Shown: positions 3,348 to 34,571, counted from the first letter of the stretch. The stretch: DNA of 64,000 nt from Bacteroidaceae bacterium (GCA_045533955.1 JAZSIU010000011.1:20555-84554); one strand, 5' to 3'. Translations and numbers: made by a program. The notes: a model not told the origin generated them from the letters alone.

Positions 3348-3599
3348 TCACGGCATAAATTCGCCCCCCACGCCATTGAGCGTCTGACGCAGAATCTGAT
3401 TCAGATTTTCGTCGTCGTGCTCTTTTTCCTTATTTAATTTTACAAGAAAATCGGCTGTCGTCTTTAGTGCCTGATTTATTGTGCCCGGGTCCTCGCAGTC
3501 GTGTGTCAGGCGCTCGAGCCGTTGAATGAGACGATGGAACAGGGCCAGCGTTTCGTTGTGTACGTCGTTGATGGTTACTTTACTGTTTTTCTTTGCCAT
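3348..3599 (-). CDS. hypothetical small protein
   Basis: 83-aa ATG ORF preceded by a TAnnTTTG box. No recognisable motif. Confidence 0.45.
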   Translation of the reverse strand: MAKKNSKVTINDVHNETLALFHRLIQRLERLTHDCEDPGTINQALKTTADFLVKLNKEKEHDDENLNQILRQTLNGVGGEFMP

Positions 3600-4740: not shown

Positions 4741-7700
4741 ATGAACCTATTCAAAGAAAATGACGATTATCTGTTGAAAAAAGATGACCGACGCGGAAAA
4801 GATAATTCTTTTCGAGGCGATGGGGGTGCGGCTGTCAGTGCCGAGGATAAAGAGTATATGAACAGCCTTGCCGACGAGATGAAATTAGCAGGCGAGCAGA
4901 TGGAGCGCAGCCGCCAACGTCTCGAGGCTTGGGAGGCGAGAGATTGGGACAATTACTATAAGAGTAGTCAGAAGAATTTTCTTGTTCCAAAGGATAGCGA
5001 AGAGCGTCGTCGCCGACAGTTTGTAACCACTCCTAAAGTGGTCGATGAGGCTATCGAGGAGTATTACAACGATACTTTCCGCCCCAAAATGCAGGCCGAG
5101 CGTAAGGCGGCCGATGCAAAAGCATTTGAGGCCTATAAAAGCTATGCGACAGTCCCGGGCGCAAATGCTTCGCTTGCAATTGGTAATTTGTATAGTGAGA
5201 GCAACCCTCTGACCACGCTCGAAAAAGCAATGGCCGCACCCGACGATGGAGGGCTCGATGCAATTGCCAATCGCTATGCGCAGTATGCGGGGCTCGACCC
5301 CGACGAGTATCGTAAGCTGATACTCGAGCCGGCTCTCAGACAGAGGGCCGTAAAAGAGCTTGTCGATGAAAAAACGCCTAAAAGCACAGCTGAGTATATG
5401 TTGCGCGGTGTGCGTCGAAATTCGCTTATGGGCTCTATGGCCGACCTTGATTCCTATGGTTACAAGGGGGCCGGAGGGCATCGTTACATTGATGATATGG
5501 CAATGGAGAATTATAACCCCTCGCGCTTGGAGCGTTTCGTCTCAGGGGTGGGAGGACTTTTGCTCGATGGTGCTATGTTTGCGGGAATAGGCGCGGGTGC
5601 CTCATCGCTTGTGGGAAAAGCAACAAATACAATTGTTAATCGTGCCGCCTCGAAGATGATGCTCGAGGGTGCGACCAAAGGCCTCACACGCGAGGCGGCC
5701 GAGGCGGCTGCAAAAAAGGCTGTGCTCGGGAGCCTTAAGACGAAAATCGCGCAGAGTGCGGCGACGCAGGGACTTACTCTGGGTACCTACGATGCTGCGC
5801 ACAGCGTGGTCAGTGATATTCTGCACGGCGAGAATATTGATGCTACTGCGGCAGCATCGGCCTTTGGACGCGGAGCGGCGACGGGTGCTGCCGTGGGTGT
5901 TGTGGGCACGCCGCTGAGACACGTTTCGAGAGGATTGACAGGCGGACGCAGAGTGGCCGCATCGACGGGTATTCTGAGTGCCGAGTCGGCGGTGTTTACA
6001 GCCTCGGGCGAGCTTGGAAAAATGGCCGACGGGGTGCAGATTGAGCCCATCGACCTTGTTAACGATTTTGGCGAGAGTGCGGCTACGCTGCTTGCTATGA
6101 GGATGTTACATTGGCGCCCGTCGGGAGCCTCCGAGAAACTGAATACCGTAGGACGATTAAAGCCCGAACTGCGATTCTCGATGCCCGAGGCCGAAGAAAT
6201 TAAACGCGCGGGGGTTAATCCCGACCAATTTATCGCCAATCTCGAAAAGAGCCTTAACGTCTATTCGGCGGGTAGTGCAAAGGCTGCGCGCGATGTAAAA
6301 ATGGATTATCTGCGACTTATGTCCTTGCCCGATTTATCAATCTCGGCACGCTCGAAACTGCTTTACGTTGTCGAGAATAAACTCTCCTCGACACCGCCCG
6401 AGGCCGTCGATTATAAGGTGATTGATAAGGGCAACGGTAACTACGTCTTTTCGACCATTGATGCCGAGGGCCGTCTGCTCGAGAATATAAAGTGTCGTAG
6501 TCGCGAGGAGCTGAAGAGCCTCTACTTTACGCGTACGGGACAGATGCGTCGCAACAGAATTGCTATGCACGAGAGAATGTTGATGCAGAGTTACGACTCG
6601 CAGAATTTCTTTCGTCAGGCTGGTAAATATGCTCGTGAGACGGGCACCGACGTCAACCTAATCTCGGATATTATGTACCGCAAAGCGCGTCAAGAGGAGC
6701 TTGCGCCCAAGGAACAGGCTGTGCTCGACGATATTCTTGCACGCTCGAACTACTCGGATAGTGAGGTGGGGCAGATGCTCCACTCGCTCCGCCGCAGCCT
6801 CGAGCAAGAATACGGCCTTAACGACGGCAGCTTGCTTGGGGCAATAGACAAGAGTGCCTTCCACTGCTCAAAAGCCGAGAACGACGCACTTAACAGCTAC
6901 GAGAAAATTATGCGCAGCGAGGTTCTGAAACTATACGAAGGAGTGTCGAACAAGCGTGCCAATGAGCTCTCGTCCTACGATAATGACTATGCAGGTCTGG
7001 GAAACAGCGAGCTTAAAAAGCAGGAGCAACAAAATTTTACCACCCGTGCAATAATCACGGGCGAGGGGCTGAACGAAGGGGCGGTACCCACATTCACCGA
7101 GCAATATGGAATATTCGCAACCGACGTTCGTAAACCCAAAAATTGGGACGAGAGATATGTGTGGAACCCGCGACGCAACAAACACACGCGCGAGGATGTT
7201 GATAGAATGGCAAAGGAAGCTGTTGAATTAGGAAAGTCGCTCGGGGTTAAAATAAATGTCATTGTCGATGCGTCGCAAATTCCAATTACCGACCCCGAAT
7301 GGAATTTTAAGATGCGCTCATTTGGCTGGCTCAATGAAATGAATGGCGAGATAACAATAAATGTTCCAAACAACGAAGATATTGCCGCCGTGCGCCGAAC
7401 CGTAGTACACGAGGCTGTGGGGCACAGAGGCTTCGGACAACTTTTCGGCTACTACTATTTCGACTTTCTCGAGGAGGTCTATCAACGTTCCGACGCCGAC
7501 GTCCGCAAAAGCATCGACGAGATTGCCACTAATAATGCTTTTCATTTGCATAAAGCTGTTGACGAGTATATTGCGCGTCTTTCGGAGCGCACTATAACCA
7601 CTCCCGAGCAGCGTTCAATCTACCAGCGTTTCCGCGATTTTGTACGCGAGATGTTGCAGCGTCTGAATATTTTCCGTGAGCCCATTTCCGAGGACGAGCT

Positions 7701-21480: not shown

Positions 21481-21740
21481 AATTTTAGATTTTATGTTTA
21501 TTGCAATATTGCAGTTTCTTATAGTCTGCATTAACTAAAATAAATAAAGCGCAGACTTTTGCCAACGCTCTCAGGCTCATCACAAGCCGAATATACAGTG
21601 GTTCAGTCTGCACCTATTATAATCCAATTGTATATTCTTTTGCTTTTTTTGTTTCGAGGAGGTTATTCAATAGCGATTGAGCAATTTTTTTTTTGGAAAA
21701 GTCTTACATTCGCTTCTCTCCCGACTGCCTTGCAAATATA

Positions 21741-21934
21741 GTGCAAGCGAATGAAATAATGCAAATTTATTTGCAATTATTTCGCAATGAGCGCCGCCTA
21801 TATTCAGCTTTTGCTAAATAAGTGCAAGCGAATGAAATAATGCAAATTTATTTGCAATTATTTCGCAATGAGCGCCGCCTATATTCAGCCTTTGCTAAAT
21901 AAGTGCAAACGAATGAAATAATGCAAATTTATTT
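21741..21934. repeat. 81-bp tandem repeat, about 2.4 copies, each with an internal imperfect palindrome
   Basis: Copies start at 21741, 21822 and 21903 and are near identical. Each carries GAAATAATGCAAATTTATTTGCAATTATTTC. Confidence 0.9.
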
Positions 21935-23927: not shown

Positions 23928-24295
23928 TTACTTTTTAAAAGCCCTCTTTAGCAGCAGGCGTGCGGCGCAGATGCGGTTCTTGATGGTTGCCCAGTGGCAG
24001 GCCGAGCGCGAGCGTAATCTCGCAATATTTGTAGCTCCGGGCATACATTATCAGTGGGGTGGAAAAATCGGGTGGGAGCTTTGCGATAATGCGAGAAACA
24101 TCGTGAAATTCCGGCAGTACGTCGGCTGCGTCATCTGTGCTGTAATAATTATAATTGGTATTTTCTATTCTTACTCTTCACTCCGCAAAGAGAGACGTTC
24201 GTTAAGAAAGATATTTCGCATAATCCGCCGGGCCCAATGGTCGAATCTCGTTCCGATAGTAAAATATTTTCGCTTGATATAGGCCTTTGTTAGCC
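23928..24295 (-). pseudogene. decayed, N-terminally truncated sigma-70/ECF-type sigma factor gene
   Basis: The minus strand reads region-2-like FDHWARRIMRNIFLNER, then in-frame TAA (24171-24173) and TAG (24165-24167). Region-4-like LPPDFSTPLIMYARSYKYCEITLALGLPLG follows in another frame. A further frameshift precedes TIKNRICAARLLLKRAFKK-stop at 23928. Similarity stops at the island edge, about 24295. Confidence 0.6.
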
Positions 24296-24334
24296 ATAAT
24301 GTTAAAAACCCCTCTAGAATGGTCGGGAGGGTGT
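24296..24334. repeat. partial third copy of the 83-bp arm repeat (contains hairpin T1)
   Basis: ATAATGTTAAAAACCCCTCTAGAATGGTCGGGAGGGTGT aligns with the right half of 29382-29464 and 34408-34490. Confidence 0.7.
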
Positions 24335-24389
24335 GAAAATAAAGCAACCGCCTCAACATAATGAAACGTCGGAGCGGTTGTAAGTTGTT

Positions 24390-24726
24390 GACTATTTTCT
24401 GTTTGCCCTGCGGGCAACTCCCATTGAGTCAATCACTGTCGCATCGCGACCGTATCCCACGCTTTGCGTGACTATTACTCAGTGATTGCCTCTATCATTT
24501 TGCAAGCAAAATAATTGACTCATCACAATGTTGCCTTTAACTTTGTTGAAACGCTGCTGCACTCGTTGTAAAAACTCAAACAAGTTTAGTTTTAACTTGT
24601 TGGCAGGTGTTTTGGGCAATCGCACGTCGCGTGGCACTAGAACTCTCCCTCTGTTTATAGAGGGAGTACCCGAAGGGGGAGGGAGTATTTGTGCTACACG
24701 CGACTAACTGCTCAAAAGGTTGCTCA
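24390..24726 (-). other. structured non-coding module, copy I
   Basis: Shares TCCCATTGA (24419-24427), CAATCGC and the bulged helix GCGTGGCAC (24629-24637)/GTGCTACACGC (24691-24701) with copies II and III. Minus-strand terminator hairpins lie at its low-coordinate end. Confidence 0.4.
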
Positions 24727-24759
24727 GTAGTCGTAAAAAACAGCGTTTTTTACGACTAC
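24727..24759. repeat. att-core-like sequence in perfect-hairpin form
   Basis: GTAGTCGTAAAAAAC-AGC-GTTTTTTACGACTAC. The same left arm and loop region occur at 29749-29775. Confidence 0.6.
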
Positions 24760-24872
24760 TCGACTAGAATAGTTAAATTGGGGTTAAATATTTTAACTTT
24801 ATTATCAATGCTTTAACACTGAATTTTACCTTTTGAAACGGCAACTGGTGTCAAGAACAGGTGTCGAAAAAT
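24760..24872. repeat. AT-rich arm repeat, copy 1, with paired GGTGTC motifs
   Basis: TCGACTAGAATAGTTAAAT...TTTTAACTTTATTATCAATGCTTTAA aligns with 27849-27945 and 29784-29890. GGTGTC at 24847 and 24860. Confidence 0.75.
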
Positions 24873-24873
24873 T

Positions 24874-25944
24874 TTATATTATTGGTTCTATAGTGTATCC
24901 TTGTTCTTCTCCAAATTTAATTATTTTCCCTATATTGCCACTGCCAATTTCTCTTGTAAAAGCAAAAGTAATCCCATCAGCACTTACCATTAAGTTCTCT
25001 TTTTCTTCACGCCAACGCTTGTCTTTGGATTTATCAGTAGTAGTTTCTTTCCACTTTTGTATTTCAGAATACTTTTCAATACCAAATGGAATAGCATTTA
25101 CAATTTCATAATAAGTAAGTTGAGGGTTATTCCTTACAAACAATTGTACTATAGCTAACGCTAAATGCCCTTTGCCATAGTTCCCATTTCCATTTAGTCT
25201 ATATTGTGTGTAGTCCTTTGGCTTATTGTTACTTATTACAGGGGTTTGGGCTGGAGTGTATGTTTCTATATGTATTATGTTTGTGCAATTTTTACGTTTA
25301 ATGTTTATTTCTATTTCATTTGTGATATTCTCAATATCTTCAGCACAGTATCCCTCGCTTGTCAATTTTTGATTTAATAACTCAATAAATAATTGCTTAC
25401 CTTTTTCTGTTGTAAGTTCGTTGATAAACTCGTTAATCTCTTTTTGTTTTTCTTGTTTTGCGATTTGTTCAATGCAAAAATTAGTAAGCTGTTCGGCGTT
25501 GAAATTTTCTTGTTTGAAAAGTTCAATAAAGTTTTTACCATTATTAGAGTTTTCTACGAAGTCAATTTTCAATATACTTATAGGTTCTTTTCCAAACTCA
25601 TAATAGAACAATTCTATATGTTCTCCCATATATATACCAAATTGCACTGGTAGTAATTTCATATATGAGAAAAGTTGTACTATTTCCTCTTTATTTTGAA
25701 TGTGGTTAGGTTTTTTCATCTCAATAACGAACAATGGAGTATCGTCCTTGAAAAATACAATATCTGGATATACATAGTTTACTGTACTGCCGACTCTTAA
25801 TTGATATTGATTTTCTACACGCTCGCAGTGCCAACCTAATAAATAACGAAAGTGTGTATAGACAAGTTTTTGATATTCCTTTTCGGTTGCTTGCTTTGTT
25901 TTCTTATCTAATATGTCTTTACATATTGTGTTCCAAATATTCAT
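24874..25944 (-). CDS. PD-(D/E)xK nuclease-like protein (type I restriction HsdR N-terminal-like domain) with an uncharacterised C-terminal domain
   Basis: 356 aa. YPDIVFFKDDTPLFVIEMKK fits the D...E-x-K nuclease core. It occupies the cargo slot of decayed unit 1. Confidence 0.55.
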   Translation of the reverse strand: MNIWNTICKDILDKKTKQATEKEYQKLVYTHFRYLLGWHCERVENQYQLRVGSTVNYVYPDIVFFKDDTPLFVIEMKKPNHIQNKEEIVQLFSYMKLLPVQFGIYMGEHIELFYYEFGKEPISILKIDFVENSNNGKNFIELFKQENFNAEQLTNFCIEQIAKQEKQKEINEFINELTTEKGKQLFIELLNQKLTSEGYCAEDIENITNEIEINIKRKNCTNIIHIETYTPAQTPVISNNKPKDYTQYRLNGNGNYGKGHLALAIVQLFVRNNPQLTYYEIVNAIPFGIEKYSEIQKWKETTTDKSKDKRWREEKENLMVSADGITFAFTREIGSGNIGKIIKFGEEQGYTIEPII

Positions 25945-26067
25945 TGTGCTATGTTTTAATGCACAAAGTTATTTATTTATTTATATTCATTTAATCAAGT
26001 GATATTCATAAATACAGTTATTGCTCCCGACTTCGCCGGGAGCAATAACTAATAAACAAAATTCAAA

Positions 26068-26172
26068 TTAAATACAGAACTCTCTCTTTACTCTCTGCAC
26101 TGTACTAACGCTAACATTGGATAATTTTGCTGTGTTTCGTACAGAGTAACCACGCTTGAGCAGTGAGATTAA
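26068..26172 (-). pseudogene. 3' stub of a serine recombinase gene
   Basis: Encodes LISLLKRGYSVRNTAKLSNVSVSTVQRVKREFCI-stop. This is near identical to the C-terminus of the intact gene at 30761-31414. No upstream catalytic domain is present. Confidence 0.8.
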
Positions 26173-26217
26173 TAGTAAAAATGTTTAATTAAGTATGTCA
26201 ACAAAAAGTTTTTTTGC

Positions 26218-26225
26218 TATATTTG
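26218..26225 (+). promoter_or_regulatory. -7 promoter box TATATTTG upstream of the HipA-like operon
   Basis: TAnnTTTG match about 120 nt upstream of the ATG at 26345. Confidence 0.4.
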
Positions 26226-26344
26226 CGGTAAAATTGGGAATATAGTTTGCACTTGCATTGAAAAAATATTGAATGTTTTTTGATATTTCTCAGTTGTTAG
26301 TGTTATATATATGCTTCAATTATTATAATTCTACGTGTCAAAAT

Positions 26345-27136
26345 ATGCTCGATAGTATCAAGGATATTCAAAAACAATATGAAACAGGAGAAAACCCTGT
26401 TCTTGTAATGTGTAACGATAAGAATGAGTATGTGTGTAAGTATATGCGTTCTTTAAATCCTGCGTATAAGCTTGTGTGTGAATTCATTGGCTCTCATCTT
26501 GTTGAAAAATGGAATATCCGTTCTCCGAAAATGAATCTAGTGAAAATCAAGGCTGAGCATTGGAGTAATTTTTTATCGACAAATTGTATCCGTACTGCAC
26601 CAGCGTTGGGGTATATGATGCTGAATAGTGTTGTTGATATTACACAGACAACGTATAGTCATATACAACTGTCAAAGAAAGTTCTTGTACAATTGCTAAA
26701 GATTGCTCTTTTTGACTTTTGGGTAGCAAATGAAGACCGTACATATAATAATGCAAATTTGCTGTACGATGTAAAATGCGATGAACTTGTTTCTATTGAT
26801 TATGGCGGAATATTCAATACCTCGACATTTGAATACCCAATGTGTCAGTTGACAATGACAGATACGATATTGTATGCAGAAATATTCAAACAATTTATAA
26901 ATAAATTTTCAAAGAATGAAATTAGGACTGTTGCTGTAGGGTTGGAAGATTATTATAGAAAGTCGGTCGATAAGTGTAGAGGTGTGCTTGAAAGTATGAT
27001 TTCGGGAATACCATTAGAATGGAAAGTTGATAATGATATTATACTTAATAAACTGATGCAATTGTTTGATGAGTCGTGGGTGGCTGAAGTGTGGACAAAT
27101 TTTGTTGAATGCTTAAATGATAATATAAATGAATAA
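26345..27136 (+). CDS. HipA-like (HipA C-terminal fold) protein kinase
   Basis: The ATG at 26345 gives MLDSIKDIQ. The catalytic-loop-like WVANEDRTYNNANLLYD and metal-binding-like VSIDYGG resemble the HipA kinase core. Confidence 0.6.
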   Translation: MLDSIKDIQKQYETGENPVLVMCNDKNEYVCKYMRSLNPAYKLVCEFIGSHLVEKWNIRSPKMNLVKIKAEHWSNFLSTNCIRTAPALGYMMLNSVVDITQTTYSHIQLSKKVLVQLLKIALFDFWVANEDRTYNNANLLYDVKCDELVSIDYGGIFNTSTFEYPMCQLTMTDTILYAEIFKQFINKFSKNEIRTVAVGLEDYYRKSVDKCRGVLESMISGIPLEWKVDNDIILNKLMQLFDESWVAEVWTNFVECLNDNINE

Positions 27137-27476
27137 GTTACAATATAGCATAATTTTTGGTGAGATTAGACCTGAGATTTCTGAACGTTTAAGTCTTGGC
27201 GTCATTGTAGTAGATGGTGAAAATATTTCTGTCAAATACTCAAACAAGAAATTGCAGGTGTTAAAAAGTCTGTACTCTCAAAAAGAATATGAGTTTGTAG
27301 GGAGAGTTGTCAGAGGGTTGTCAAGAAACAATAAGATTCCTTCAGAAGGCATAGTTAATTATTTGTCAAGATACTCAAATAATTTGCTCTCAATATCAAA
27401 ATTACAGGGGATAGATTTGGAAGCAAATGAAAAGAGTAAACAATGGTTGTATGATACATATGTAAAGGTGGGTTAA
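27129..27476 (+). CDS. DUF3037-like small protein, translationally coupled to the kinase
   Basis: 115 aa with an 8-nt overlap with the kinase stop. The N-terminus (YSIIFGEIRPEISERLSLGVIVVDG) resembles DUF3037 as I recall it. There is no HTH. Confidence 0.45.
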   Translation: MNKLQYSIIFGEIRPEISERLSLGVIVVDGENISVKYSNKKLQVLKSLYSQKEYEFVGRVVRGLSRNNKIPSEGIVNYLSRYSNNLLSISKLQGIDLEANEKSKQWLYDTYVKVG

Positions 27477-27494
27477 AAACAACCCTTTGGAAAT

Positions 27495-27531
27495 AAAACA
27501 ATAAAGAAGCCGTAGGCTTCTTTATTGTTTT
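27495..27531. terminator. bidirectional hairpin terminator
   Basis: AAAACAATAAAGAAGCC-GTA-GGCTTCTTTATTGTTTT. Confidence 0.75.
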
Positions 27532-27540
27532 ATAGTTATC

Positions 27541-27799
27541 ATACTTGCGGGGTAGCGGACTAAGGTAAATACCCGAAGGGGAGGTGGCTTTATGCTACGT
27601 GCGACTATTACTCATTGAAGCCCTTGGTGGAAGTAATAAACAACAAGAGCCGAAAGGCTCTTGTTGTAGAATATTGTCATTGTCCCCTTTGAGGCCATCC
27701 CATTGAGACCATTGTTTTTGTCTTTGACAATCGCCACCCACGCGGTGCCACCTTACGGCACTTCGCGTGACCTATGGCTCTGCGATTAGCTCGGAAGGA
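27541..27799 (-). other. structured non-coding module, copy III
   Basis: TCCCATTGA at 27698-27706. Hairpin TTGTC/GACAA at 27718-27730. Bulged helix CGCGGTGCC (27741-27749)/GGCACTTCGCG (27757-27767). Confidence 0.4.
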
Positions 27800-27829
27800 G
27801 TAATAAAAAAATGGAACCTTGTGGTTCCA

Positions 27830-27848
27830 TTTTTTATTACTCCCACTC
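27830..27848. repeat. degenerate att-core copy
   Basis: TTTTTTATTACTCCCACTC is preceded by its own hairpin (27800-27840) and followed by the AT-rich arm. Confidence 0.6.
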
Positions 27849-27945
27849 GACTAGATATATTAAATTTTGAATAAATCTTTTAACTTTATTATCAATACTT
27901 TAATATTGCCATTTGCTCTAAGATGAGTTAAATGGTGTCGAAAGA
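27849..27945. repeat. AT-rich arm repeat, copy 2
   Basis: GACTAGATATATTAAATTTTGAATAAATCTTTTAACTTTATTATCAATACTTTAA. A single GGTGTC at 27934. Confidence 0.75.
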
Positions 27946-29232
27946 TTATTCTTGCTTTTCTATCTCTATGTTTTTGAATTTACCAAAAACGGGGTGATGT
28001 CGGTATTCCCAACGTGTTCCAGATGGTACATACAGAGTACATTCTTCAAAATTAACACTTTCATCTTTACCTAAGGCATAATTATCAATTTGAATATTGC
28101 CTAATTGTGTCCAATGTAGATGTATGCTTTTCAGTGCCGAGCAACCCTGAAAAGCTCTGTATCCAATTGCTGTTACGCTATTTGGAATGTTAATGTTTTG
28201 TAATGATGAACACCACCAAAAAGCTGATTCTCCTATTGTTGTTACACTGTTCGGAATTTCAATGCTTTTCAGTGCCGAGCAGAACTTAAAAGCGGAATCT
28301 CCTATTGTTGTTACACTGTTTGGGATGTCAATGCTTTGCAGTGCTGAGCAATTATAAAACGCTTCACTTCCTATTGTTGTAACACTATTAGGAATATCAA
28401 TGCTTTGCAGTGCTTCACAACCGCCAAAAGCACTGTATCCTATTGTTATTACGCTATTAGGTATATCAATGCTTTGCAGTGCCATACACTCCCAAAAAGC
28501 ACTATTTCCTATTGTTGTTACACTGTTTGGAATGTTAATGCTTTGTAGTGATGAACAACCATAAAAAGCACTATCTTCTATTGTTGTTACGCTGTTTGGG
28601 ATGTCAATGCTTTGTAGTGATGAGCAACCATAAAAAGCGTGGTTTCCTATTGTTGTTACACTGTTTGGGATGTCGATGCTTTGTAGTGATGAGCAACCCC
28701 AAAAAGCACCATTTCCTATTGTTGTTACGCTATTTGGGATGTCAATGCTTTGCAGTGCTGAGCAACCACCAAAAGCACTATTTCCTATTGTTGTTACACT
28801 GTTTGGAATCTGAATACTTTGCAGTGCCGAGCAACCCCCAAAAGCGTATTCTCCAATTGTTGTTACGCTGTTTGGGATGTCAATGCTTTGCAGTGCCGAG
28901 CAACTCCAAAAAGCACTGTATCCTATTGTTGTTACGCTGTTTGGAATCTGAATACTTTGCAGTGCCGAGCAACTCCAAAAAGCACTGTATCCTATTGTTG
29001 TTACACTATTAGGAATCTCAATGCTTTGCAATTGCCAGCAACTATTAAAAGCATTTTTTCCTATTGTTGTTACGCTGTTAGGTATATCAATACTTTTCAA
29101 TTGCCAGCAACTATTAAAAGCATCGTGTCTAATAGTTGTTACCCCCTTAGGTATTGTAATATGAGTAATGGGTTGATTGTTAACGCTTATTACAGCTTTT
29201 TTGTCTTCACTTAATATAAGAATATTATCCAT
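27946..29232 (-). CDS. BspA-type leucine-rich-repeat protein without a signal peptide
   Basis: About 14 tandem 23-aa repeats ([24 protein letters not shown]). The ATG at 29232 lies 25 nt downstream of a -7 box. The N-terminus [12 protein letters not shown] is not a signal peptide. Confidence 0.8.
28146..29166. repeat. 69-bp periodic coding repeats inside the LRR gene
   Basis: Many units share long identical nucleotide runs (e.g. CCTATTGTTGTTACACTGTTTGG...AATGCTTTGCAGTGC). Confidence 0.85.
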
Positions 29233-29256
29233 TGCTATACTATAAATTGCTTTTTG

Positions 29257-29264
29257 CAAATATA
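29257..29264 (-). promoter_or_regulatory. -7 promoter box TATATTTG for the LRR gene
   Basis: TAnnTTTG on the minus strand, 25 nt upstream of the ATG at 29232. Confidence 0.45.
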
Positions 29265-29321
29265 GTTTTTTAATTTTAAGAATAGATTATAGTTGTAAAT
29301 AACATATATAAAAAATCTAAA

Positions 29322-29384
29322 TTAAATACAAAACTCTCTTTTCACTCTTTGAACTGTGCTAACGCTAACATTGGATAATTTTGC
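29322..29384 (-). pseudogene. second 3' stub of a serine recombinase gene
   Basis: Encodes AKLSNVSVSTVQRVKREFCI-stop and is fused directly to the 83-bp arm repeat. Confidence 0.75.
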
Positions 29385-29464
29385 TACTGGTGTCAAAAAG
29401 TGGTATAAATTCATATTCGTTAACTGTAATGTTAAAATACCCTCCAGAATGGTCTGGAGGGTGT
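29382..29464. repeat. 83-bp arm repeat, left copy (paired GGTGTC plus hairpin T1)
   Basis: Aligns with 34408-34490 with 5 mismatches. The last 38 bp are identical. Confidence 0.85.
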
Positions 29465-29519
29465 GAAAATAAAGCAACCGCCTCAACATAATGAAATGTT
29501 GAAGCGGTTGTAAGTTGTT

Positions 29520-29748
29520 TATTATTAGAGTTTTTTATTGACAAGGCTCGTTATTCGCAACCCGCACGGCGTGATTTATATCCACGCTTCGTGCGACCTT
29601 TTGCTACTCGCCTTGTCGATAATTTTTGCCTTTTTTGAGGCAAAAATTATTCCCATTGACCAACCTTTTGTTGCCTTTGGCAATCGCACCCCGCGTGGCA
29701 CTATCTTCGTCAGTGCTACACGCGACTAACTGCTCAAAAGGTTGCTCT
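29520..29748 (-). other. structured non-coding module, copy II
   Basis: Bulged helices GCACGGCGTG (29564-29573)/CACGCTTCGTGC (29583-29594) and GCGTGGCAC (29693-29701)/GTGCTACACGC (29713-29723). TCCCATTGA at 29651-29659. Hairpin TTGCC/GGCAA at 29671-29683. Confidence 0.4.
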
Positions 29749-29755
29749 GTAGTCG

Positions 29756-29783
29756 TAAAAAACGCTGTTTTTTACTCCCACTC
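29756..29783. repeat. att-type direct repeat, distal copy
   Basis: TAAAAAACGCTGTTTTTTACTCCCACTC, identical to 34544-34571. Confidence 0.85.
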
Positions 29784-29890
29784 GACTAGATATGTTAAAT
29801 TTTGATTGAATGTTTTAACTTTATTATCAATACTTTAACTTTTGTTTTTGCCTTTTGGAACTGCAACTGGTGTCAAAAACTGGTGTCGAA
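29784..29890. repeat. AT-rich arm repeat, copy 3, with paired GGTGTC motifs
   Basis: GACTAGATATGTTAAATTTTGATTGAATGTTTTAACTTTATTATCAATACTTTAA. GGTGTC at 29869 and 29882. Confidence 0.75.
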
Positions 29891-29904
29891 AGTCTTGTGA
29901 AAAA

Positions 29905-30654
29905 TTATGGTACTACGATAAAATTTAAAAGACTGTATTCAAGTGAAAGCATTGATGCAGATGTTGTTGAAATGATGTCGCCGTCTTGGAAACGCTTATT
30001 TACGTCTACACAAATAAATAAACCACCTTCTGGTAATTCAATAACGTCTAAAACTTTGCTTTTATGTATTATTGCTTGGTTTAAACTTTCTAAACTTTTA
30101 TCCTTAATCTCTATTTCTTTGATATTTTTAAAATCTATAATATCATTGAAATATATAGAGATTTCTTCTAAAAAGCGCTTTTGAATTTCTTTCGATTTAA
30201 AGTCAACAGCAGATGCAATAAATTCATCATAATCTGCGCCATAGTATATAGGACCTGTCATTAAAGCATTAATACTTTCTTCATTAATGCTTATTCTTGC
30301 CCAATCAGAATTATACTTGCGAGTTATATTATCAAGCTTTATTGCTTTTTCCAATATGTAATGTGTATCTTTGGCTAATGAAATGTTTTCAGGACATAAT
30401 TCTATAATAAGTTTCTCAAAACTTAATACTGTTTGTTCTTCTTTTTCATAGCGATATTTTAATGCCTTTGCTTTTGCTATTGCAGTTATTGTTTCTAGTC
30501 TTTCTTCAAATAAATAGTGATTAGGTCGAGAAGTGGCTCCCCATTGCGCTGTTATTTCACTGTTTACCTTAATTCCTGAATATTGAAAGATTGGATAATT
30601 TTTTCTAAGGTTCTTTAGCATTTCACTAAATAGTCTATTTGCATTAGTATCCAC
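29905..30654 (-). CDS. hypothetical protein in the cargo slot of the intact element
   Basis: 249-aa ORF with a GTG start at 30654; an ATG alternative gives MLKNLRK 11 codons in. No recognisable motif. Very AT-rich. Confidence 0.5.
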   Translation of the reverse strand: MDTNANRLFSEMLKNLRKNYPIFQYSGIKVNSEITAQWGATSRPNHYLFEERLETITAIAKAKALKYRYEKEEQTVLSFEKLIIELCPENISLAKDTHYILEKAIKLDNITRKYNSDWARISINEESINALMTGPIYYGADYDEFIASAVDFKSKEIQKRFLEEISIYFNDIIDFKNIKEIEIKDKSLESLNQAIIHKSKVLDVIELPEGGLFICVDVNKRFQDGDIISTTSASMLSLEYSLLNFIVVP

Positions 30655-30760
30655 CGAAATATATTGTATATAAATTATAAATTACAAATTTACTCTAATT
30701 TTAGGTTTTAAACAAGTGTTTTCAATGGAAATTGATAGAGGTTTATATATGAAATTCAAA

Positions 30761-31414
30761 TTACAAACAAAATTCTCTTTTCACTCTTTGAACAGTGCTA
30801 ACACTAACATTGGATAGTTTCGCTGTGTTTCGTACAGAGTAACCTCGTTTGAGCTGTGAAATAACCTCTTTGTATTCCTCTTTCTTGCGCTCTGTGGTCT
30901 TACAGGAACCTTTCTTGCGCCCTAACTTGCCACCATTGGCAATATAACTATTTCTGCCCGAATTGAGTCTGTAAACGATGTTAGAACGTTCGATATTCGC
31001 CATTTCGGCAAGAACTGTTACCATTATGCTGGCGATTGGGTTCGCCTCTCCTGTGGCGTTCAGGGTGTAAATGCCAAGGTTTTGGATATATACTGAAACA
31101 CCCGCCTCGTGCAACATTTCGAGCGATTTTAACACTTGCAAGGTGGAACGACCTAAACGACTCAACTCCGACAGTAGAATATAGTTGACCTTGTTTGCTA
31201 TACAGTAGTTAATGCACTCCATTAGAACTGTTCTGTTCTCGTTCTTGGTTGCTCCGCTTATGTGTTCTTCGTAAGTGCCAATGATATTAAAGTCGTTGCT
31301 GTTGGCAAAGCGTGTCAAGTCCTCAATCTGTCTTTGTGTATTCTGTCTGTCGTTAGTAGATGAAACTCTGGCGTAAATAACTGCTGTACTCATATTGCTA
31401 TCTCTTTGGTTCAC
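30761..31414 (-). CDS. serine recombinase (resolvase/invertase type)
   Basis: 217 aa. The catalytic-Ser motif is AVIYARVSS. It has a resolvase core and a C-terminal HTH (GYSVRNTAKLSNVSVSTVQRV). Confidence 0.9.
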   Translation of the reverse strand: MNQRDSNMSTAVIYARVSSTNDRQNTQRQIEDLTRFANSNDFNIIGTYEEHISGATKNENRTVLMECINYCIANKVNYILLSELSRLGRSTLQVLKSLEMLHEAGVSVYIQNLGIYTLNATGEANPIASIMVTVLAEMANIERSNIVYRLNSGRNSYIANGGKLGRKKGSCKTTERKKEEYKEVISQLKRGYSVRNTAKLSNVSVSTVQRVKREFCL

Positions 31415-31478
31415 TGGCTAAGGTACCAGGAAAGTCCTGCTCCTGCAAGCTCCAGAGTCAAAAATATCAAAGAATATT

Positions 31479-31548
31479 TTGAATATATAAAAACATGTTT
31501 TTTTTGATTGAATACAGATTTTTTTGAATACAATTAAATATTGAATAC
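31479..31548. repeat. iteron-like direct repeats TTGAATA(C/T) x4
   Basis: Copies at 31479, 31508, 31524 and 31541, in the spacer between the rep-like stop and the recombinase start. Confidence 0.6.
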
Positions 31549-31735
31549 GGTATAAAGAGGATATATATAAGATTGGATTTATTTTCAACTATTTACGAAA
31601 AATATGTTTTTTTCTTCATTACCACCCTTGTAAGAAAATGTAAGATTTTATATTACAATAAGCGGTTTTATTATCAATATGTTATGTCTATATATATGTA
31701 ATGGCAAGGTAGTTTACTAATACCTTGCCACGCAA

Positions 31736-32623
31736 TTACAACAGTTCTAAAATGCTGTAACTCTTTCTGCCGTTCTTGTCTTGGAAACGCAAAACTCTGT
31801 CGAGGAATGTTATAAAGAAAAACAAAAGAGAGTCCTTGTCTAAAAATATCTTTGGGCTGTATGTTATCTGCTCTCTTGTGAAAAAGTCTTTGAGAACATC
31901 GCTGTTTATTCGTACCTCTAACCTATAAAGTTTCTTGGGGTTGTCGTTGTTGTCGAGAATGTATTGTTTGTGGCTCTTGCTCTCAATTTCTCGTTTCTTG
32001 TTGTAAGCGTTGAGAGTGATGTTTTTGTTCTTCTGTGCCACTAATACGCTATACTCCTTAATTCTATAGAGGTTGCCAACTCCTATATAAAGAATGTCCT
32101 CAATCAGTTGTTTGCGGTCTGTGATTTTAGTGCCGTTCACTATTGGAGTGTACTCCTTGTTTCGTATCAGTTGGATAAGTTTCTTGGGATAATTGCAACT
32201 GCCGTCAATGGCGATGTCCCAATGAGTGAAATTGTTGAACACAAGTCCTAATGTATCTTCGATGTACTCAAGGTGCAACAATCTGCTATGTTGCCAATCG
32301 TGTTTTAGGTAGAATTGCTTGTTCTCTACTTGCAACCAAACAAACGACTGCATAGCCTCATCGGTGTCTGCTTTCAACCCCCATTGTAGCGTGCCGAAGA
32401 CTTGCTCTGTGAACTCTTGGAAAGTGTTGTCTTCGTAGTCAAGATAGACTATTTCATAAATGTAGTTATAGTGAGTGCCTTGCACTTGCCTTAATCTGTA
32501 CCCCCATTCGGGGTGTTCAAATTCTTCTGTTGGGTTATCTCTTAATGTGTTTAGATAACTGTTCTCTGCCAATGTGTAGCAGATTTTCAACTTGTCGATA
32601 GTTGGTGTAAATTCATTTTTCAT
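31736..32623 (-). CDS. Rep_trans-like rolling-circle replication initiator
   Basis: 295 aa. HWDIAIDG and LNAYNKKREIE...LYRLEVRIN resemble the conserved D-x-A-x-D and Y-x-K...R-x-E motifs of the Rep_trans (pT181 RepC / phage replication protein) family. Confidence 0.55.
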   Translation of the reverse strand: MKNEFTPTIDKLKICYTLAENSYLNTLRDNPTEEFEHPEWGYRLRQVQGTHYNYIYEIVYLDYEDNTFQEFTEQVFGTLQWGLKADTDEAMQSFVWLQVENKQFYLKHDWQHSRLLHLEYIEDTLGLVFNNFTHWDIAIDGSCNYPKKLIQLIRNKEYTPIVNGTKITDRKQLIEDILYIGVGNLYRIKEYSVLVAQKNKNITLNAYNKKREIESKSHKQYILDNNDNPKKLYRLEVRINSDVLKDFFTREQITYSPKIFLDKDSLLFFFITFLDRVLRFQDKNGRKSYSILELL

Positions 32624-32814
32624 TCCTTTTTTAAATTATTACTCTTATTAGTTCTCTCTTGCCATACAGTTCTCATCGCCTCTGCTATGGCTTGTTTGTG
32701 CTGTGGGGTTTTGCGATACCTTTTCATCGCTTGGCTAATTCTCTTGCGTGTAACAGCACTCTTTTTTCTTCCACGCAGTGTCAATGAAATTTTGTGTTTT
32801 GTCTGTTCATTCAT
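32620..32814 (-). CDS. small basic DNA-binding protein with NUMOD3-like motifs (candidate excisionase / recombination directionality factor)
   Basis: 64 aa. TKHKISLTLRGRKKS and TRKRISQAMKRY resemble NUMOD3 repeats. There is a 4-nt overlap with the rep-like start. Confidence 0.5.
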   Translation of the reverse strand: MNEQTKHKISLTLRGRKKSAVTRKRISQAMKRYRKTPQHKQAIAEAMRTVWQERTNKSNNLKKE

Positions 32815-32941
32815 AGTGCTATCCTTTTTACTATAAATAGTAAGTAGGTTGAAAAAATGTAGATTTTTTTCTGAAAAATTTTACAGACAGAACTGTTATA
32901 TAGTAGATAGGCTCTTATAACAGTTCCCTCAAAGGGGTTAC

Positions 32942-34270
32942 CTATCTTGCAAACGCTTGGGCTACTATCCTTGCGTGTTCCTCTTTGTTTACCTTGATAT
33001 ATTTGAGAAAATTATTCTCTGTGGTGTGTCCCGTGATTGCCATAATACTAATGCTTGGAACTCCTTTGAGATACATATTTGTGGCAAATGAGCGTCTTGC
33101 AGTATGGTTCATAACAAACTCAAACTTTGCTCCGTCCTTGATGATTGTGTTTCCACCTTTTACACGGGATAGGGTAGTCCTTTCGTTGATGTTGGCAAGT
33201 TTAGCACACAGACGGATATGTTTCAAGCAATGTGTCTTGTCCACGCTTTTGGGGAAACTCTCTCCGTATTTCGTGAATATCTCTTTAACCATTGGGTGCA
33301 TAGGAATAACAACAGTTGCGTTTGTCTTGTGAGTGTGAACAACCATAGTATCGTTGCTCCTTATCTCAACATTAGATAGGTCTTGCCAATCTCCAAAGCG
33401 TAGTCCAGTCCAACAAGCAACAATGAACAAGTCCCGTGTTTCTTCAATTCTTGCTTTATCGCCAACAACTGCTTTTACGGCCTCATCTTCAAAATTGATA
33501 GCATACAATCGTTTAATCTCTTCCTCTGTTAGATAGATGTTATCTACATCTTGGCACTTGGTAGTGTAAGAGTGATAGCATTTGTTTATCTCAATGCCGT
33601 TCAGTTCTGCCTCTTTCAACCATACTTTGATAATGCTGAATGTGCTTGCTATCGTGTTTGCAGCGTATTCTCGTTCTAATAACCAAGCAGTAAAACGTTC
33701 TTCAAGGCGATTGTCAAACAGTTGCCAAGTGAGTGCAAGGCGATTGTCGTTGCAGAACTCTTGTAAGCGTTTCAAGGCATTGTAATGGTTGTAGATTGTA
33801 CCGCTGACTATCTTGCGTTGTGTTGTTCTGTTTACCATTTGCTTTTTGCGCTCAATGTAGTCTTGTATGAATGTCAAAGGTTTCTTCTTGATGTCTGTGT
33901 CCTTGCCATTGATTTTGCATTTGAAGTAGTTTTCAAAGTTCTCTTTCGTGTGTTCAATCTCGCCCTCTGTAATTGCTTTTGCATAGTCGTTGCAGTAAGA
34001 TAGTATCTGTTTCAGTGCTTTGTTTACCTCTTTATTATAGCGTAACTGAACTGCTCCAATGGCAGGGTCTTCTGTTGCTCTTTCGCCAACTTGGGTTCTT
34101 GTGGTCTTTAACCAATACTGCGGTTCTATTGTCAGTTTGGTAAATACTCTTGCTCGTTCTTTGTTGATTGTTGTTGTCAACCAAATTTGAGATTTGTTGC
34201 CTACTGTTTTGAGATTGAAATTGACTCTCATAGTAAATTTGTGGTTTATATAAAATTCGTTTTCTACCAT
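32942..34270 (-). CDS. tyrosine site-specific integrase
   Basis: 442 aa (alternative ATG at 34231). Catalytic residue contexts are WTGLRFGD, HTARRSFAT and GHTTENNFLKY. The N-terminal arm-binding/SAM-like region is typical of Bacteroidetes integrases. Confidence 0.9.
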   Translation of the reverse strand: MVENEFYINHKFTMRVNFNLKTVGNKSQIWLTTTINKERARVFTKLTIEPQYWLKTTRTQVGERATEDPAIGAVQLRYNKEVNKALKQILSYCNDYAKAITEGEIEHTKENFENYFKCKINGKDTDIKKKPLTFIQDYIERKKQMVNRTTQRKIVSGTIYNHYNALKRLQEFCNDNRLALTWQLFDNRLEERFTAWLLEREYAANTIASTFSIIKVWLKEAELNGIEINKCYHSYTTKCQDVDNIYLTEEEIKRLYAINFEDEAVKAVVGDKARIEETRDLFIVACWTGLRFGDWQDLSNVEIRSNDTMVVHTHKTNATVVIPMHPMVKEIFTKYGESFPKSVDKTHCLKHIRLCAKLANINERTTLSRVKGGNTIIKDGAKFEFVMNHTARRSFATNMYLKGVPSISIMAITGHTTENNFLKYIKVNKEEHARIVAQAFAR

Positions 34271-34407
34271 ATTAAAAATACTTTTTTGACTTATTATTTT
34301 CTAAAGTATATGTTTGGTCTATAGAAAAGTCAAGGGGTAAAAGCATTTTTTTTCGATTTTTTTTTCAAAGGTACCAGGAAAATCTCATCTGCTCAAATGG
34401 TGGCAAC

Positions 34408-34490
34408 TGCTACTGGTGTCAAAAAGTGGTGTCAATTTACATTCGTTAACTATAATGTTAAAATACCCTCCAGAATGGTCTGGAGGGTGT
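34408..34490. repeat. 83-bp arm repeat, right copy (paired GGTGTC at 34415 and 34428 plus hairpin T1)
   Basis: Aligns with 29382-29464. Confidence 0.85.
34458..34487 (-). terminator. minus-strand hairpin terminator T1
   Basis: CCCTCCAGA/TCTGGAGGG stem, followed on the minus strand by TATTTT. Confidence 0.6.
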
Positions 34491-34494
34491 ATAT

Positions 34495-34533
34495 CAATAA
34501 AATAGCCTCAACTTTTTTGTTGTTGAGGCTATT
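34495..34533 (-). terminator. minus-strand hairpin terminator T2' downstream of the guaA-like gene
   Basis: AATAGCCTCAAC/GTTGAGGCTATT stem. Confidence 0.6.
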
Positions 34534-34543
34534 GAAATATGCT

Positions 34544-34571
34544 TAAAAAACGCTGTTTTTTACTCCCACTC
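34544..34571. repeat. att-type direct repeat overlapping the stop codon and last three codons of the guaA-like gene
   Basis: Identical to 29756-29783. TTACTCCCACTC is the reverse complement of GAG TGG GAG TAA. Confidence 0.85.

Follow-up and report, generated by a model that had tools for sequence, protein, structure and literature searches.

Stacked structured non-coding cassettes behind guaA in a Bacteroidaceae integration island

The 3′ end of guaA is a recurrent target of integrating elements, including ATE-1, GIsul2, and a Brucella IncP island (PMC5704250). The island analyzed here uses this site and also resembles tandem accretion with CIMEs, in that an intact element stands in tandem with several others that have att flanks but no integrase; it lies in 64,000 nt of DNA from a Bacteroidaceae bacterium (GCA_045533955.1 JAZSIU010000011.1:20555-84554), hereafter the window. 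Stacked, small, structured, gene-less junction cassettes are unreported in those systems, however, and both the phylum and the integrase family differ.

Comparable features occur in several other systems. Integron attC sites also combine conserved structure with variable sequence, place a core and inverse core at the base of the fold, and keep bulged bases, and their cassettes are likewise small, stacked by a tyrosine-recombinase site, and gained or lost at a core. In contrast, the units described here lack the RYYYAAC/GTTRRRY core (in a search for the R″/R′ boxes RYYYAAC ... GTTRRRY, GTTRRRY occurred in 0 of 15 seed units), have no IntI-type integrase, form gene-less cassettes with a three-way junction, and stand in arrays behind guaA rather than by attI and an integrase promoter, with single-strand recombination only putative and hinted at indirectly by the pairing of core and inverted core. 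The CTX-phage attP(+) site (IMEX) resembles the present locus in its two inverted copies of the chromosomal target, some tens of bases apart, through which a single strand would mimic the target duplex, and the element here encodes a Phage_CRI/Rep_trans-like protein, by a weak match. However, the recombinase at the present locus is encoded by the element and has arm-type sites, rather than being the host XerCD; the palindromes double as fully functional-looking terminators, and phage genes are absent.

Single-strand origins (ssoA/U/T/W; sso1 of ICEBs1) are similarly strand-specific, folded, and non-coding over ~100-200 nt, are helpful but dispensable, and may number more than one per replicon. 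The ssoA origin carries the recombination site RSB (PMC5703833), and ICEBs1 uses sso1 and a redundant region (PMC4595007). The units differ in having no sequence similarity to these origins, in being absent from most intact elements, and in persisting as arrays outside elements. REP/BIME and MITE repeats share mixed palindromic units, set linkers, arrays just 3′ of stop codons, and a few dispersed copies, but the present unit is a 95-nt three-way junction versus a 20-40-nt hairpin, has no GTAG/CGTC tag or linked RAYT gene, and is overwhelmingly clustered at one locus. The tagged 20-40-nt hairpin in high dispersed copy number that characterizes REP/BIME was not found, with 2 of 60 units clearly isolated from guaA-type arrays.

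A first-pass annotation of the region had proposed searches for known families, and no Rfam or repeat family was matched. Rfam 15 gave 0 matches at the gathering threshold over the whole window and, at E <= 10 over positions 24000-30000, only chance-level matches, none covering a unit. An ARAGORN search of the window for tRNA and tmRNA returned 0 genes.

A three-way-junction unit in three arrays

The same annotation described three one-to-one paralogous modules of 230-340 nt. These are instead stacks of a smaller, undescribed non-coding unit of ~75-100 nt with a three-way-junction fold, in differing types and states of decay. The modules comprise IIb and IIa, IIIb and the 5′ half IIIa, and Ia and the wreck Ib, giving four full units and two wrecks in the window (Table 1).

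Units read along the minus strand of the window, which is the guaA sense, in the order closing helix P1, 4-bp helix P1a, bulged rod P2, short hairpin P3, and a tail, (C/G)TCAATGGGA, that is core-like, (C/G)TC-AATGGGA. At its base the fold reads GAG...CTC and then AATGGGA, and a short RGTC tag lies 5′ of the main hairpin. The conserved blocks reported earlier are real but form parts of this smaller unit on the opposite strand: TCCCATTGA, present at 24419, 27698, and 29651, corresponds to the 3′ tail, CAATCGC covers the end of P1a and the start of P3, and GAC-Y-W-W-N3-CTC covers the start of P1a/the internal loop and the end of P1. The bulged helices, the TTGCC/GGCAA versus TTGTC/GACAA hairpin, and the loop insertion of copy I (24640-24686) were all recovered.

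Unit IIb comprises P1 CAACCTTTTG/CAAAAGGTTG, P1a, a bulged P2, P3 TTGCC/GGCAA, and the tail TCAATGGGA. Unit IIa, with P1 GACAAGGC/GCCTTGTC and the tail GTCAATAAAAAA, shares 94-95% identity with copies in L001, L006, L019, and L010. The P1 of unit Ia is CAATCACTG/CAGTGATTG. Unit Ib is identical to IIb in its 5′ half, carries a nested insert of 47 nt (24640-24686) in the apical loop of P2, and has diverged in its 3′ part; unit IIIa is a 5′ half only, with the P1 5′ arm, AGTAATAGTC, and the P2 5′ strand at 27592-27622, and retains a piece of the loop insert. Chimeras that combine two unit types occur, and unit types are shared between different arrays.

Ahead of array II, the segment 29748..29783 consists of the core, an A/T hairpin GTAAAAAAC-AGC-GTTTTTTAC, and the linker GACTACA, with a 28-nt identity to 34544-34571. 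Ahead of array III, the palindrome pairs GGAGTAAT... with ...ATTACTCC, and the linker TTCC is next. The P4 hairpin also follows many units at other loci, and the short spacer hairpin of array I recurs in L005, L019, and L088. The minus-strand terminators of the first-pass annotation were found at 29510-29475, 27667-27640, and 24368-24349, but the T2/T1 pair follows only copies I and II. The distal arrays III and I of the window appear to be decaying leftovers.

Table 1. Positions in the window of the three arrays and of the intact element E1
Feature	Position	Strand	Score or remark
Array II			
Att core copy GAGTGGGAGTAA, the E1 right-end core	29772-29783	-	within 29748..29783
Unit IIb, complete three-way junction	29651..29747	-	cmsearch 100.5 bits, E 2.9e-25
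Spacer hairpin AATAATTTTTGCC...GGCAAAAATTAT	29619..29651	-	same hairpin 3′ of the real guaA stop in L006
Unit IIa, variant without P3	29533..29617	-	cmsearch 49.1 bits
Terminators T2 (29476-29509) and T1 (29440-29461)	29440..29509	-	close array II
Array III			
Att core copy (27837-27848) in long palindrome	27793..27848	-	fold -32.5 kcal/mol
Unit IIIb, with P1 decayed by mismatches but P2, P1a, and P3 intact	27698..27792	-	cmsearch 70.8 bits
Rest of module III	27541..27697	-	P4 hairpin 27680-27697, intrinsic terminator 27640-27667, unit IIIa
Array I			
Degenerate core GAGTAGTCGTAA (24750-24761) in palindrome GTAGTCGTAAAAAA...TTTTTTACGACTAC	24727..24761	-	
Unit Ib, wreck	24606..24726	-	weak partial cmsearch match, 13.4 bits
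Short hairpin CAATTATTTTGC-TT-GCAAAATGATAG in the Ib-Ia spacer	24492..24517	-	
Unit Ia, complete; P2 shortened to CGC-AAA-GCG	24419..24492	-	cmsearch 63 bits
P4 hairpin GTTGCCC-GCAG-GGCAAAC, after unit Ia tail	24401..24418	-	
Terminators T2 (24346-24379) and T1 (24310-24331)	24310..24379	-	close array I
Intact element E1	29768..34571	-	no unit; covariance model run unfiltered
E1 attL core	34560-34571		
E1 arm-type repeats	34414-34435		
E1 int	32942-34270		
E1 64-aa ORF	32620-32814		
E1 295-aa Rep-like ORF	31736-32623		
E1 candidate origin hairpin	31702-31730		conserved, directly after the 295-aa gene
E1 serine recombinase	30761-31414		
E1 249-aa cargo ORF	29905-30654		

Covariation and selection on the fold

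An alignment that was not fitted to the structure has 95.7-96.5% of its cells paired, versus 32-44% when the 3′ partners are slid. Both sides change at 23 of 29 and 25 of 33 pairs, the observed score was reached by 0 of 500 shuffles, and RNAalifold independently gives the same fold, with 34 pairs, 26 of them compensatory. P2 is paired at 99-100%, with both-sided changes at 8 of its 11 pairs, P1 helices of 13 bp are kept across unit types in wholly different sequences, and the junction residues are invariant between types. The three-way-junction fold is under selection. The sequence varies but the structure persists, so the element works as a folded nucleic acid, and this part of the first-pass annotation held strongly by paired cells, double changes, and RNAalifold alike.

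These results bear directly on the view that the units are scars with no function, piled-up remnants of guaA 3′-end and terminator copies from serial integrations, with covariation arising by ancestry or chance. Distal units are indeed decaying (P1 of IIIb is broken, IIIa and Ib are truncated), some are chimeric, and all arrays lie where old attachment junctions would accumulate. Such a history is nevertheless disfavored already and very improbable, given the 13-bp P1 helices of unrelated sequence, the doubly changed P2 pairs for which slid and shuffled controls fail, and the invariant junction residues.

Copy II folds much more stably than its shuffles on the plus strand (z = -7.5) and on the minus strand (z = -7.25). 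In the guaA sense, the wobble U23.G58 is conserved in 15 of 15 units and G37.U45 in 13 of 15; the bias of wobbles versus A.C (40 versus 14) is gone among the best-scoring units. Triloops make up 58 of 96 hairpin loops, chiefly C(AAA)G, C(GAA)G, and C(GNA)G; purine triloops with a C-G closing pair dominate, and nested inserts are seen in P2 loops.

Distribution and exchange of cassettes

A covariance model of the unit gave 60 matches (58 distinct, 26 sources), which do not represent independent events because 17 of the 20 unit-bearing metagenome loci come from one assembly. The model gave 0 matches in 44 control loci totaling 700 kb and found no unit in the window outside the island. At least 35 of the 60 units belong to arrays that start 36-75 nt past an exact GA(G/A)TGGGA(G/A)T(A/G)A core, and contig ends cut 10 further units. 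Units consistently have the sense orientation relative to a guaA-type stop ahead of them; two isolated copies are without a guaA core.

The window differs from L001, L019, and L006 by a precise 125-nt indel with edges TGGGAGTAA and TGGGAATAA, within which unit IIb lies. Its boundaries are TGGGA(G/A)TAA, which shows that cassettes are gained or lost at core copies. Each module is an array of non-coding cassettes that belong to a new, structure-constrained family. Linkers before units measure 2-7 nt, and no promoter is evident in them. In 13 of 19 folded core-to-first-unit intervals, a canonical intrinsic terminator forms the first hairpin; it is also a 20-28-bp perfect palindrome in which the core is paired with an inverted copy, and a TAA-to-TGA stop change in the core is matched by TTA-to-TCA on the other arm. 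About 40% of units have an inverted core just upstream that is able to pair with the tail.

The two isolated units occupy unrelated intergenic regions, both within a ~165-bp element with ends TGTCAT...ATGACA, and their P2 stems differ by compensatory changes. No target-site duplication is visible beside the 6-bp TGTCAT/ATGACA repeats. Both copies are co-directional with flanking genes, one inside an ilvB-ilvN-like operon. Among array units P1 varies, and it is therefore not a fixed terminal repeat.

Such dispersed copies would be expected if the units were selfish palindromic repeats of the REP/BIME or MITE kind, moved by an unlinked single-strand transposase and simply collecting in permissive sequence behind guaA, with the fold kept because the transposase needs it or through template-switch repair in quasi-palindromes. 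The mixed unit types and set linkers of the arrays are BIME-like, the nested P2 inserts fit, and the RGTC tag loosely resembles the GTAG/CGTC tags of REPs (PMC3733652). This origin is nonetheless unlikely: isolated units are few and the rest of the window has none, the unit has the size and missing tag noted above, the indel edges are att-core repeats, the isolated copies lack target-site duplications, and no candidate transposase was identified in the part of the window screened.

The resident element and the role of the fold

The island has att cores at 34560, 29772, and 27837 and a degenerate core at 24750, and int is confined to the first segment, so att-flanked, integrase-less segments stand in tandem with an intact element, a CIME-like arrangement. 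The guaA-targeting element family encodes a tyrosine integrase, a Rep_trans-like ORF, a serine recombinase, and cargo. The integrase has Phage_integrase and Phage_int_SAM_5 domains, with Arm-DNA-bind_5 below threshold (16.9 bits versus a cut-off of 22.6), and scores 44.5 bits against the NCBIfam integron/XerA model, below its cut-off of 220. The 295-aa ORF, labeled a rolling-circle Rep in the first-pass annotation, may or may not be one, as its matches are sub-threshold: the best Pfam match is Phage_CRI at 14.1 bits (E 0.038; gathering cut-off 21.7), and Rep_trans appears at E = 0.047 in 2 of 25 homologues. Its profile matched no PDB sequence, and Foldseek returned only a weak TBP-like fold (TM 0.27-0.43). 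The unit was rejected as a double-strand origin for this protein, the conserved hairpin right after the 295-aa gene being the better candidate.

As first annotated, E1 contains no such structure, even with the model run without filters. Among roughly 30 intact elements fetched, one (L006) carries a unit between the core and int, so the module is dispensable for integration and any role in the element life cycle is dispensable too. Arrays survive without a nearby element, lying directly behind the real guaA in L085, L103, and L106, and the two isolated units are unlinked to guaA, observations that count against a DNA or element role.

The explanation preferred here, tentatively and with somewhat less than an even chance of being right in full, joins the cassette family to a fold that acts as guaA-sense single-stranded DNA, not as a transcript. 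Each cassette comprises, in order, a guaA stop/att core, a 2-7-nt linker, a three-way-junction unit, and a core-like tail, the core usually pairing with its inverted copy across a hairpin. Recombination between core copies adds and removes cassettes, which thereby accumulate at the att site of guaA-targeting Bacteroidales elements. The fold would serve in cis as an accessory to the recombination or replication of integrase- and Rep-bearing elements, by a logic that would resemble integron attC, the attP hairpin of CTX phage, or a single-strand origin. The lean toward DNA derives from units placed behind canonical terminators without a promoter, core-inverted-core palindromes, C-G-closed purine triloops, and an element protein weakly similar to rolling-circle initiators alongside a separate candidate nick hairpin.

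More specifically, the cassettes could be single-strand recombination substrates, inserted and excised by a CTnDOT/NBU-type tyrosine integrase. In a folded guaA-sense strand, the core and its inverted copy would mimic the guaA duplex target, with the three-way junction as an accessory. This is unlikely but, if true, would represent integron- or CTX-like folded-DNA recombination in Bacteroidales, outside the IntI and XerCD families. Weighing against a single-stranded DNA role in general, the integrase family has arm-type sites, and its known relatives act on duplex DNA.

The first-pass annotation had offered a transcript or a single-strand DNA structure as candidates. Its discrete 230-340-nt minus-strand ncRNA does not survive as a unit, and the RNA reading becomes one of structured RNA on the minus strand, either within a guaA 3′ UTR produced by read-through or in the form of small RNAs that terminate at T2/T1 or at cassette terminators. 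Such RNA might stabilize or process the guaA message after 3′-end replacement, or control the neighboring element. RNA motifs typically combine covariation with conserved junction residues, as these units do, and the co-directional isolated copies, one in an operon, suit a transcript. This reading is rather unlikely, because most cassettes have a strong canonical terminator that includes a U tract (-32 to -40 kcal/mol) directly ahead of the unit, terminators separate successive units, linkers are too short for a promoter, triloops outnumber tetraloops, Rfam gives no match, and the att-core mimicry by the tail and upstream flank is left unexplained. The L006/window-II type is arranged differently, with only A/T-rich hairpins between the stop and the units and T2, after the units, as the first canonical terminator; its A/T-only hairpin is probably leaky. 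The conserved G.U pairs, the constant guaA-sense orientation behind the stop, and the canonical T2/T1 after arrays I and II of the window fit RNA equally well.

A covarying three-way-junction unit

The non-coding stretches behind guaA hold copies of a new motif, a three-way-junction unit of ∼75-100 nt with strong covariation. The first-pass annotation had described three of these stretches (modules I-III) as paralogous structured modules next to att cores; the motifs and helices it listed are all present at the positions it gave, copy II has folding z scores of -7.5 (plus strand) and -7.25 (minus strand), and the minus-strand terminators are in place. Something real had been seen in the modules, but their boundaries were wrongly drawn and the true unit is smaller. 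Direct paralogy of the three did not hold up: identity in a three-way alignment of whole modules is only patchy, and blastn against 79 loci fetched with the integrase alignment found module pieces recurring separately and in other orders, which led to the search for a smaller unit. The blocks listed as conserved are reverse complements of unit parts.

The unit is read on the minus strand of the window, equivalent to the plus strand of the fetched comparison loci (L numbers). From 5′ to 3′, it comprises the 5′ arm of helix P1, starting GAG; a residue A; the four nucleotides of P1a (GCAA, GCCA, or GTAA); an internal loop T-W-R-G-T-C; a lower P2 of 5 bp; a bulge of 2 nt that includes an invariant A; an upper P2 of 5-7 bp capped with a triloop; GGG; the pairing partner of P1a (TTGC, TGGC, or TTAC); 2 nt; P3, of 4-5 bp and likewise capped with a triloop; the 3′ arm of P1, which ends in CTC or GTC; and the tail AATGGGA. 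Pairing of the AGCCAT segment with the CAATGG tail as a pseudoknot was rejected because, in alignments read by eye, the two are complementary in some unit types only; the partner of the AGCCAT segment is GGGTKGCG, giving P1a. Several units carry a nested, hairpin-rich insert of 47-70 nt in the P2 apical loop, of the type CTCCCTCCCC...CCCGAAGGGG, interpreted as an expansion segment or, alternatively, as a second insertion element of very small size.

Searches with nhmmer and seven seed units gave ∼22 units in the window and loci L001, L005, L006, L010, L019, and L029. An IUPAC pattern that left P1, P1a, upper P2, and P3 free but fixed the tail and, in lower P2, the order of purines and pyrimidines matched 30 stretches of metagenome contigs; two unit patterns tried on viral contigs gave no matches. 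Real units are present in 20 of the 30 stretches (17 from the single assembly JAEIGA01, two from ERZ808030, and one from RHMF01), and the other 10 (L080-L082, L087, L089, L092, L094, L100, L102, and L107) were discarded as chance matches lacking a model match. Covariance model R1, which offers a handle for finding further copies, finds 60 units, 58 of them distinct, in 26 sources, with one metagenome supplying many of the sequences. With filters off, R1 finds exactly four full units in the window, all on the minus strand, and a weak partial match; it has no matches in 44 loci with distant integrases (700 kb total).

Covariation was measured in 15 clean units aligned with MAFFT, without fitting the alignment to a structure. 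Standard pairs occupy 95.7-96.5% of the alignment cells, which are not independent events, versus 32-44% after the 3′ partners are shifted 1-3 columns. Changes on both sides are found in 23 of 29 pairs (25 of 33 with P1a added), and none of 500 shuffles reached the observed covariation score. The same fold was given independently by RNAalifold, with 34 pairs, P1a included, and 26 of them compensatory. P1 covaries most clearly (GAGGACTTCAATG/CATTGAAGTCCTC, GAGATTCCCTATG/CATAGGGAATCTC, GAAAACATCCATA/TATGGATGTTTTC, and GGGTTAATTGCAG/CTGCAATTAAGCC), and P2 is 99.3% paired in the R1 alignment of collected units. The first-pass annotation was correct in inferring selection on structure, and it is very improbable that the units are functionless scars.

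Rfam, at gathering thresholds and at E <= 10, and ARAGORN (for tRNA) returned nothing relevant, module II had no blastn match among plasmids or phages, and the literature search turned up no account of an element of this type at the guaA gene of Bacteroides. The family matches nothing catalogued and is placed among structured non-coding elements associated with sites of recombination. It represents a well-supported new structured nucleic-acid motif of gut Bacteroidales, with 25-26 pairs that covary and nothing matching in Rfam.

Coordinates of units, arrays, and island features (window positions unless a locus is named)
Feature	Location	Strand	Remark
Modules I; II; III	24390-24726; 29520-29748; 27541-27799		First-pass stretches
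Unit IIb	29651-29747	minus	R1 100.5 bits
Unit IIIb	27698-27792	minus	R1 70.8 bits
Unit Ia	24419-24492	minus	R1 63 bits
Unit IIa	29533-29617	minus	R1 49.1 bits
Partial match (Ib)	24606-24713		R1 13.4 bits
Terminators	29510-29475; 27667-27640; 24368-24349	minus	
P2-loop inserts	24640-24686; L084 1792-1933; L096 854-991; L108 1154-1297; L104 225-360; L088 381-524		
Arrays directly behind genuine guaA	L085 350-626; L103 46-208; L106 2741-2998		No integrase element
Isolated units	L029 ∼7445-7625; L088 ∼3365-3545		Unrelated intergenic regions
guaA	34560-35867	minus	
Island	24286-34571		One intact element (E1), three integrase-less segments
E1 tyrosine integrase	32942-34270		
E1 64-aa ORF			
E1 295-aa ORF	31736-32623		
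E1 serine recombinase	30761-31414		
E1 249-aa ORF			Cargo
Hairpin after 295-aa gene	31702-31730	minus	Candidate nick site
Direct repeats	31508-31548		Follow the hairpin
Deletion-junction sites	29382-29394; L001 ∼14790; L010 ∼14600; L019 ∼4760		Integrase-less segments

Cassettes bounded by att-core copies

Units are arranged in cassettes bounded by copies of the att core, the sequence spanning the guaA stop codon. Arrays whose first unit lies 36-75 nt past an exact core account for 35 of the 60 units; 10 more are cut by contig ends, and several of the remainder follow degenerate cores. The stretch from core to unit is a hairpin, in most cassettes a perfect palindrome of 20-28 bp (-32 to -40 kcal/mol) formed by TGGGA(G/A)TAA with its inverted copy. 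This palindrome is also shaped as a canonical intrinsic terminator, and a TGA stop codon in the core is matched by TCA on its other arm. The unit tail, (C/G)TC-AATGGGA(G), is similar to the sequence at which an element end meets the core, GTC-GA(G/A)TGGGAG, and in ∼40% of units this tail could instead pair with an inverted core that lies immediately upstream of the unit.

A precise 125-nt indel separates the window from L001, L019, and L006, and contains a hairpin, a linker, and unit IIb. Because its bounds, TGGGAGTAA and TGGGAATAA, are core copies, cassettes are gained or lost at cores. Units persist behind guaA with or without an integrative element: some arrays directly follow genuine guaA genes. 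At the far island end, arrays abut chromosomal genes in L086, L099, L101, and L108. Of the intact elements, just the one in L006 carries a unit between core and int; ∼30 others, E1 included, have none. Different unit types occur within one array, the same types recur in other hosts at ∼94-95% identity, and some units are chimeric, joined in conserved segments. Units IIb and IIa, which bordered guaA until E1 came in, are intact. Of the distal units, which are older, Ia alone is intact, and IIIb, IIIa, and Ib show decay. Such stacking of small, gene-less cassettes behind an essential gene is unusual behavior.

Two units have no guaA core nearby, one upstream of mscL (L029) and one between ilvB- and ilvN-like ORFs (L088), so the family can spread beyond guaA. 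Both lie inside a common ∼165-bp element with bounds TGTCAT...ATGACA, their P2 stems differ by compensatory changes, and no target-site duplication is visible at either element. These isolated copies keep alive a reading of the units as selfish, REP/MITE-like repeats, which is nonetheless unlikely; catalogued REPs are short hairpins tagged GTAG or CGTC (PMC3733652), a description that does not fit these units.

Folded DNA strand or RNA

Two wobble pairs are conserved on the guaA-sense strand, U23.G58 in 15 of 15 units and G37.U45 in 13 of 15, and would be A.C mismatches on the opposite strand; in spacer hairpins, T.G is kept at one position, as judged by eye. Wobbles outnumber A.C mismatches 40:14 overall, a count rejected as a decisive strand test since the bias stems mostly from low-scoring or chimeric model-aligned units and is absent among the best ones. 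The assignment to guaA sense is for this reason made with moderate confidence.

The fold may act as guaA-sense single-stranded DNA, in the manner of attC, CTX, or sso sites, a reading we put forward tentatively. In most cassettes, a strong terminator stands directly before the unit and between successive units, and the linker is too short for a promoter; both favor DNA over a structured RNA. Only a role as DNA makes sense of the palindromes of core and inverted core and of the tails that resemble the core. Triloops, chiefly C(AAA)G, C(GAA)G, and C(GNA)G, make up 58 of 96 predicted hairpin loops, which also favors DNA: C-GNA-G loops are classic stable DNA mini-hairpins, and the T-shaped terminal repeat of AAV has AAA and TTT triloops. 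A structured RNA, which we consider rather doubtful, would agree with the sense orientation of units behind guaA and with the arrangement of window array II and L006, where only A/T hairpins precede the units and the canonical terminator T2 follows them. If the single-stranded DNA reading is right, folded-strand recombination or priming would extend to a new integrase family and phylum; if the units are RNA, they would form a new motif class tied to the rebuilding of the target gene 3′ end by integrative elements.

The guaA island and its intact element

The window is chromosome of Bacteroidaceae type. The last guaA codons, GAG TGG GAG TAA, recur at 29772 and 27837, with a degenerate copy at 24750, and each module lies just past a core copy, on its downstream side in guaA sense. 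The 3′ end of guaA is a known target for integrative mobilizable elements of other phyla (PMC5704250). Cargo of the integrase-less segments includes BspA-LRR, HipA-like, and HSDR_N proteins. The segments in the window, L001, L010, and L019 are products of independent deletions. All of these segments have the same left end, immediately past the arm-type site GACACCAGTAGCA, and their right ends fall at different points of the serine-recombinase gene; this pattern suggests a site-specific break just past GACACCAGTAGCA. A HipA-like kinase gene and a 115-aa ORF (26273-27476) lie between two decayed segments and on the plus strand, the opposite strand to the remainder of the island, and the BspA-type leucine-rich-repeat cargo gene (27946-29259) consists of 14 copies of a 69-nt repeat.

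The 295-aa protein of E1 has no family match at threshold, and its 25-sequence profile found nothing among PDB sequences. Its AlphaFold model (pLDDT 84) gave only weak TBP-like fold matches in Foldseek, and Phage_CRI and Rep_trans appear below threshold in Pfam over the segment containing YNKKRE and RLEVR. Directly after the stop codon of its gene is a hairpin, TGGCAAGGTATTAGTAAACTACCTTGCCA, whose loop, TATTAGTAAA, is kept while the stem covaries among elements with proteins only 51-61% identical; direct repeats GTATTCAA follow. As a candidate nick site or double-strand origin, this hairpin is preferable to the unit. The unit was rejected as a double-strand origin for Rep because E1 lacks one even with R1 filters off and has the conserved hairpin instead.

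Outside the island, an 81-bp repeat in three tandem copies (88-94% identical) occupies the intergenic region at 21730-21934, upstream of a NUDIX/NrtR-like gene. Cumulative GC skew over window positions 1-64000 peaks near 38 kb, and long ORFs point to the right up to ∼20 kb and to the left from ∼38 kb on, which may place the island near a replication terminus.
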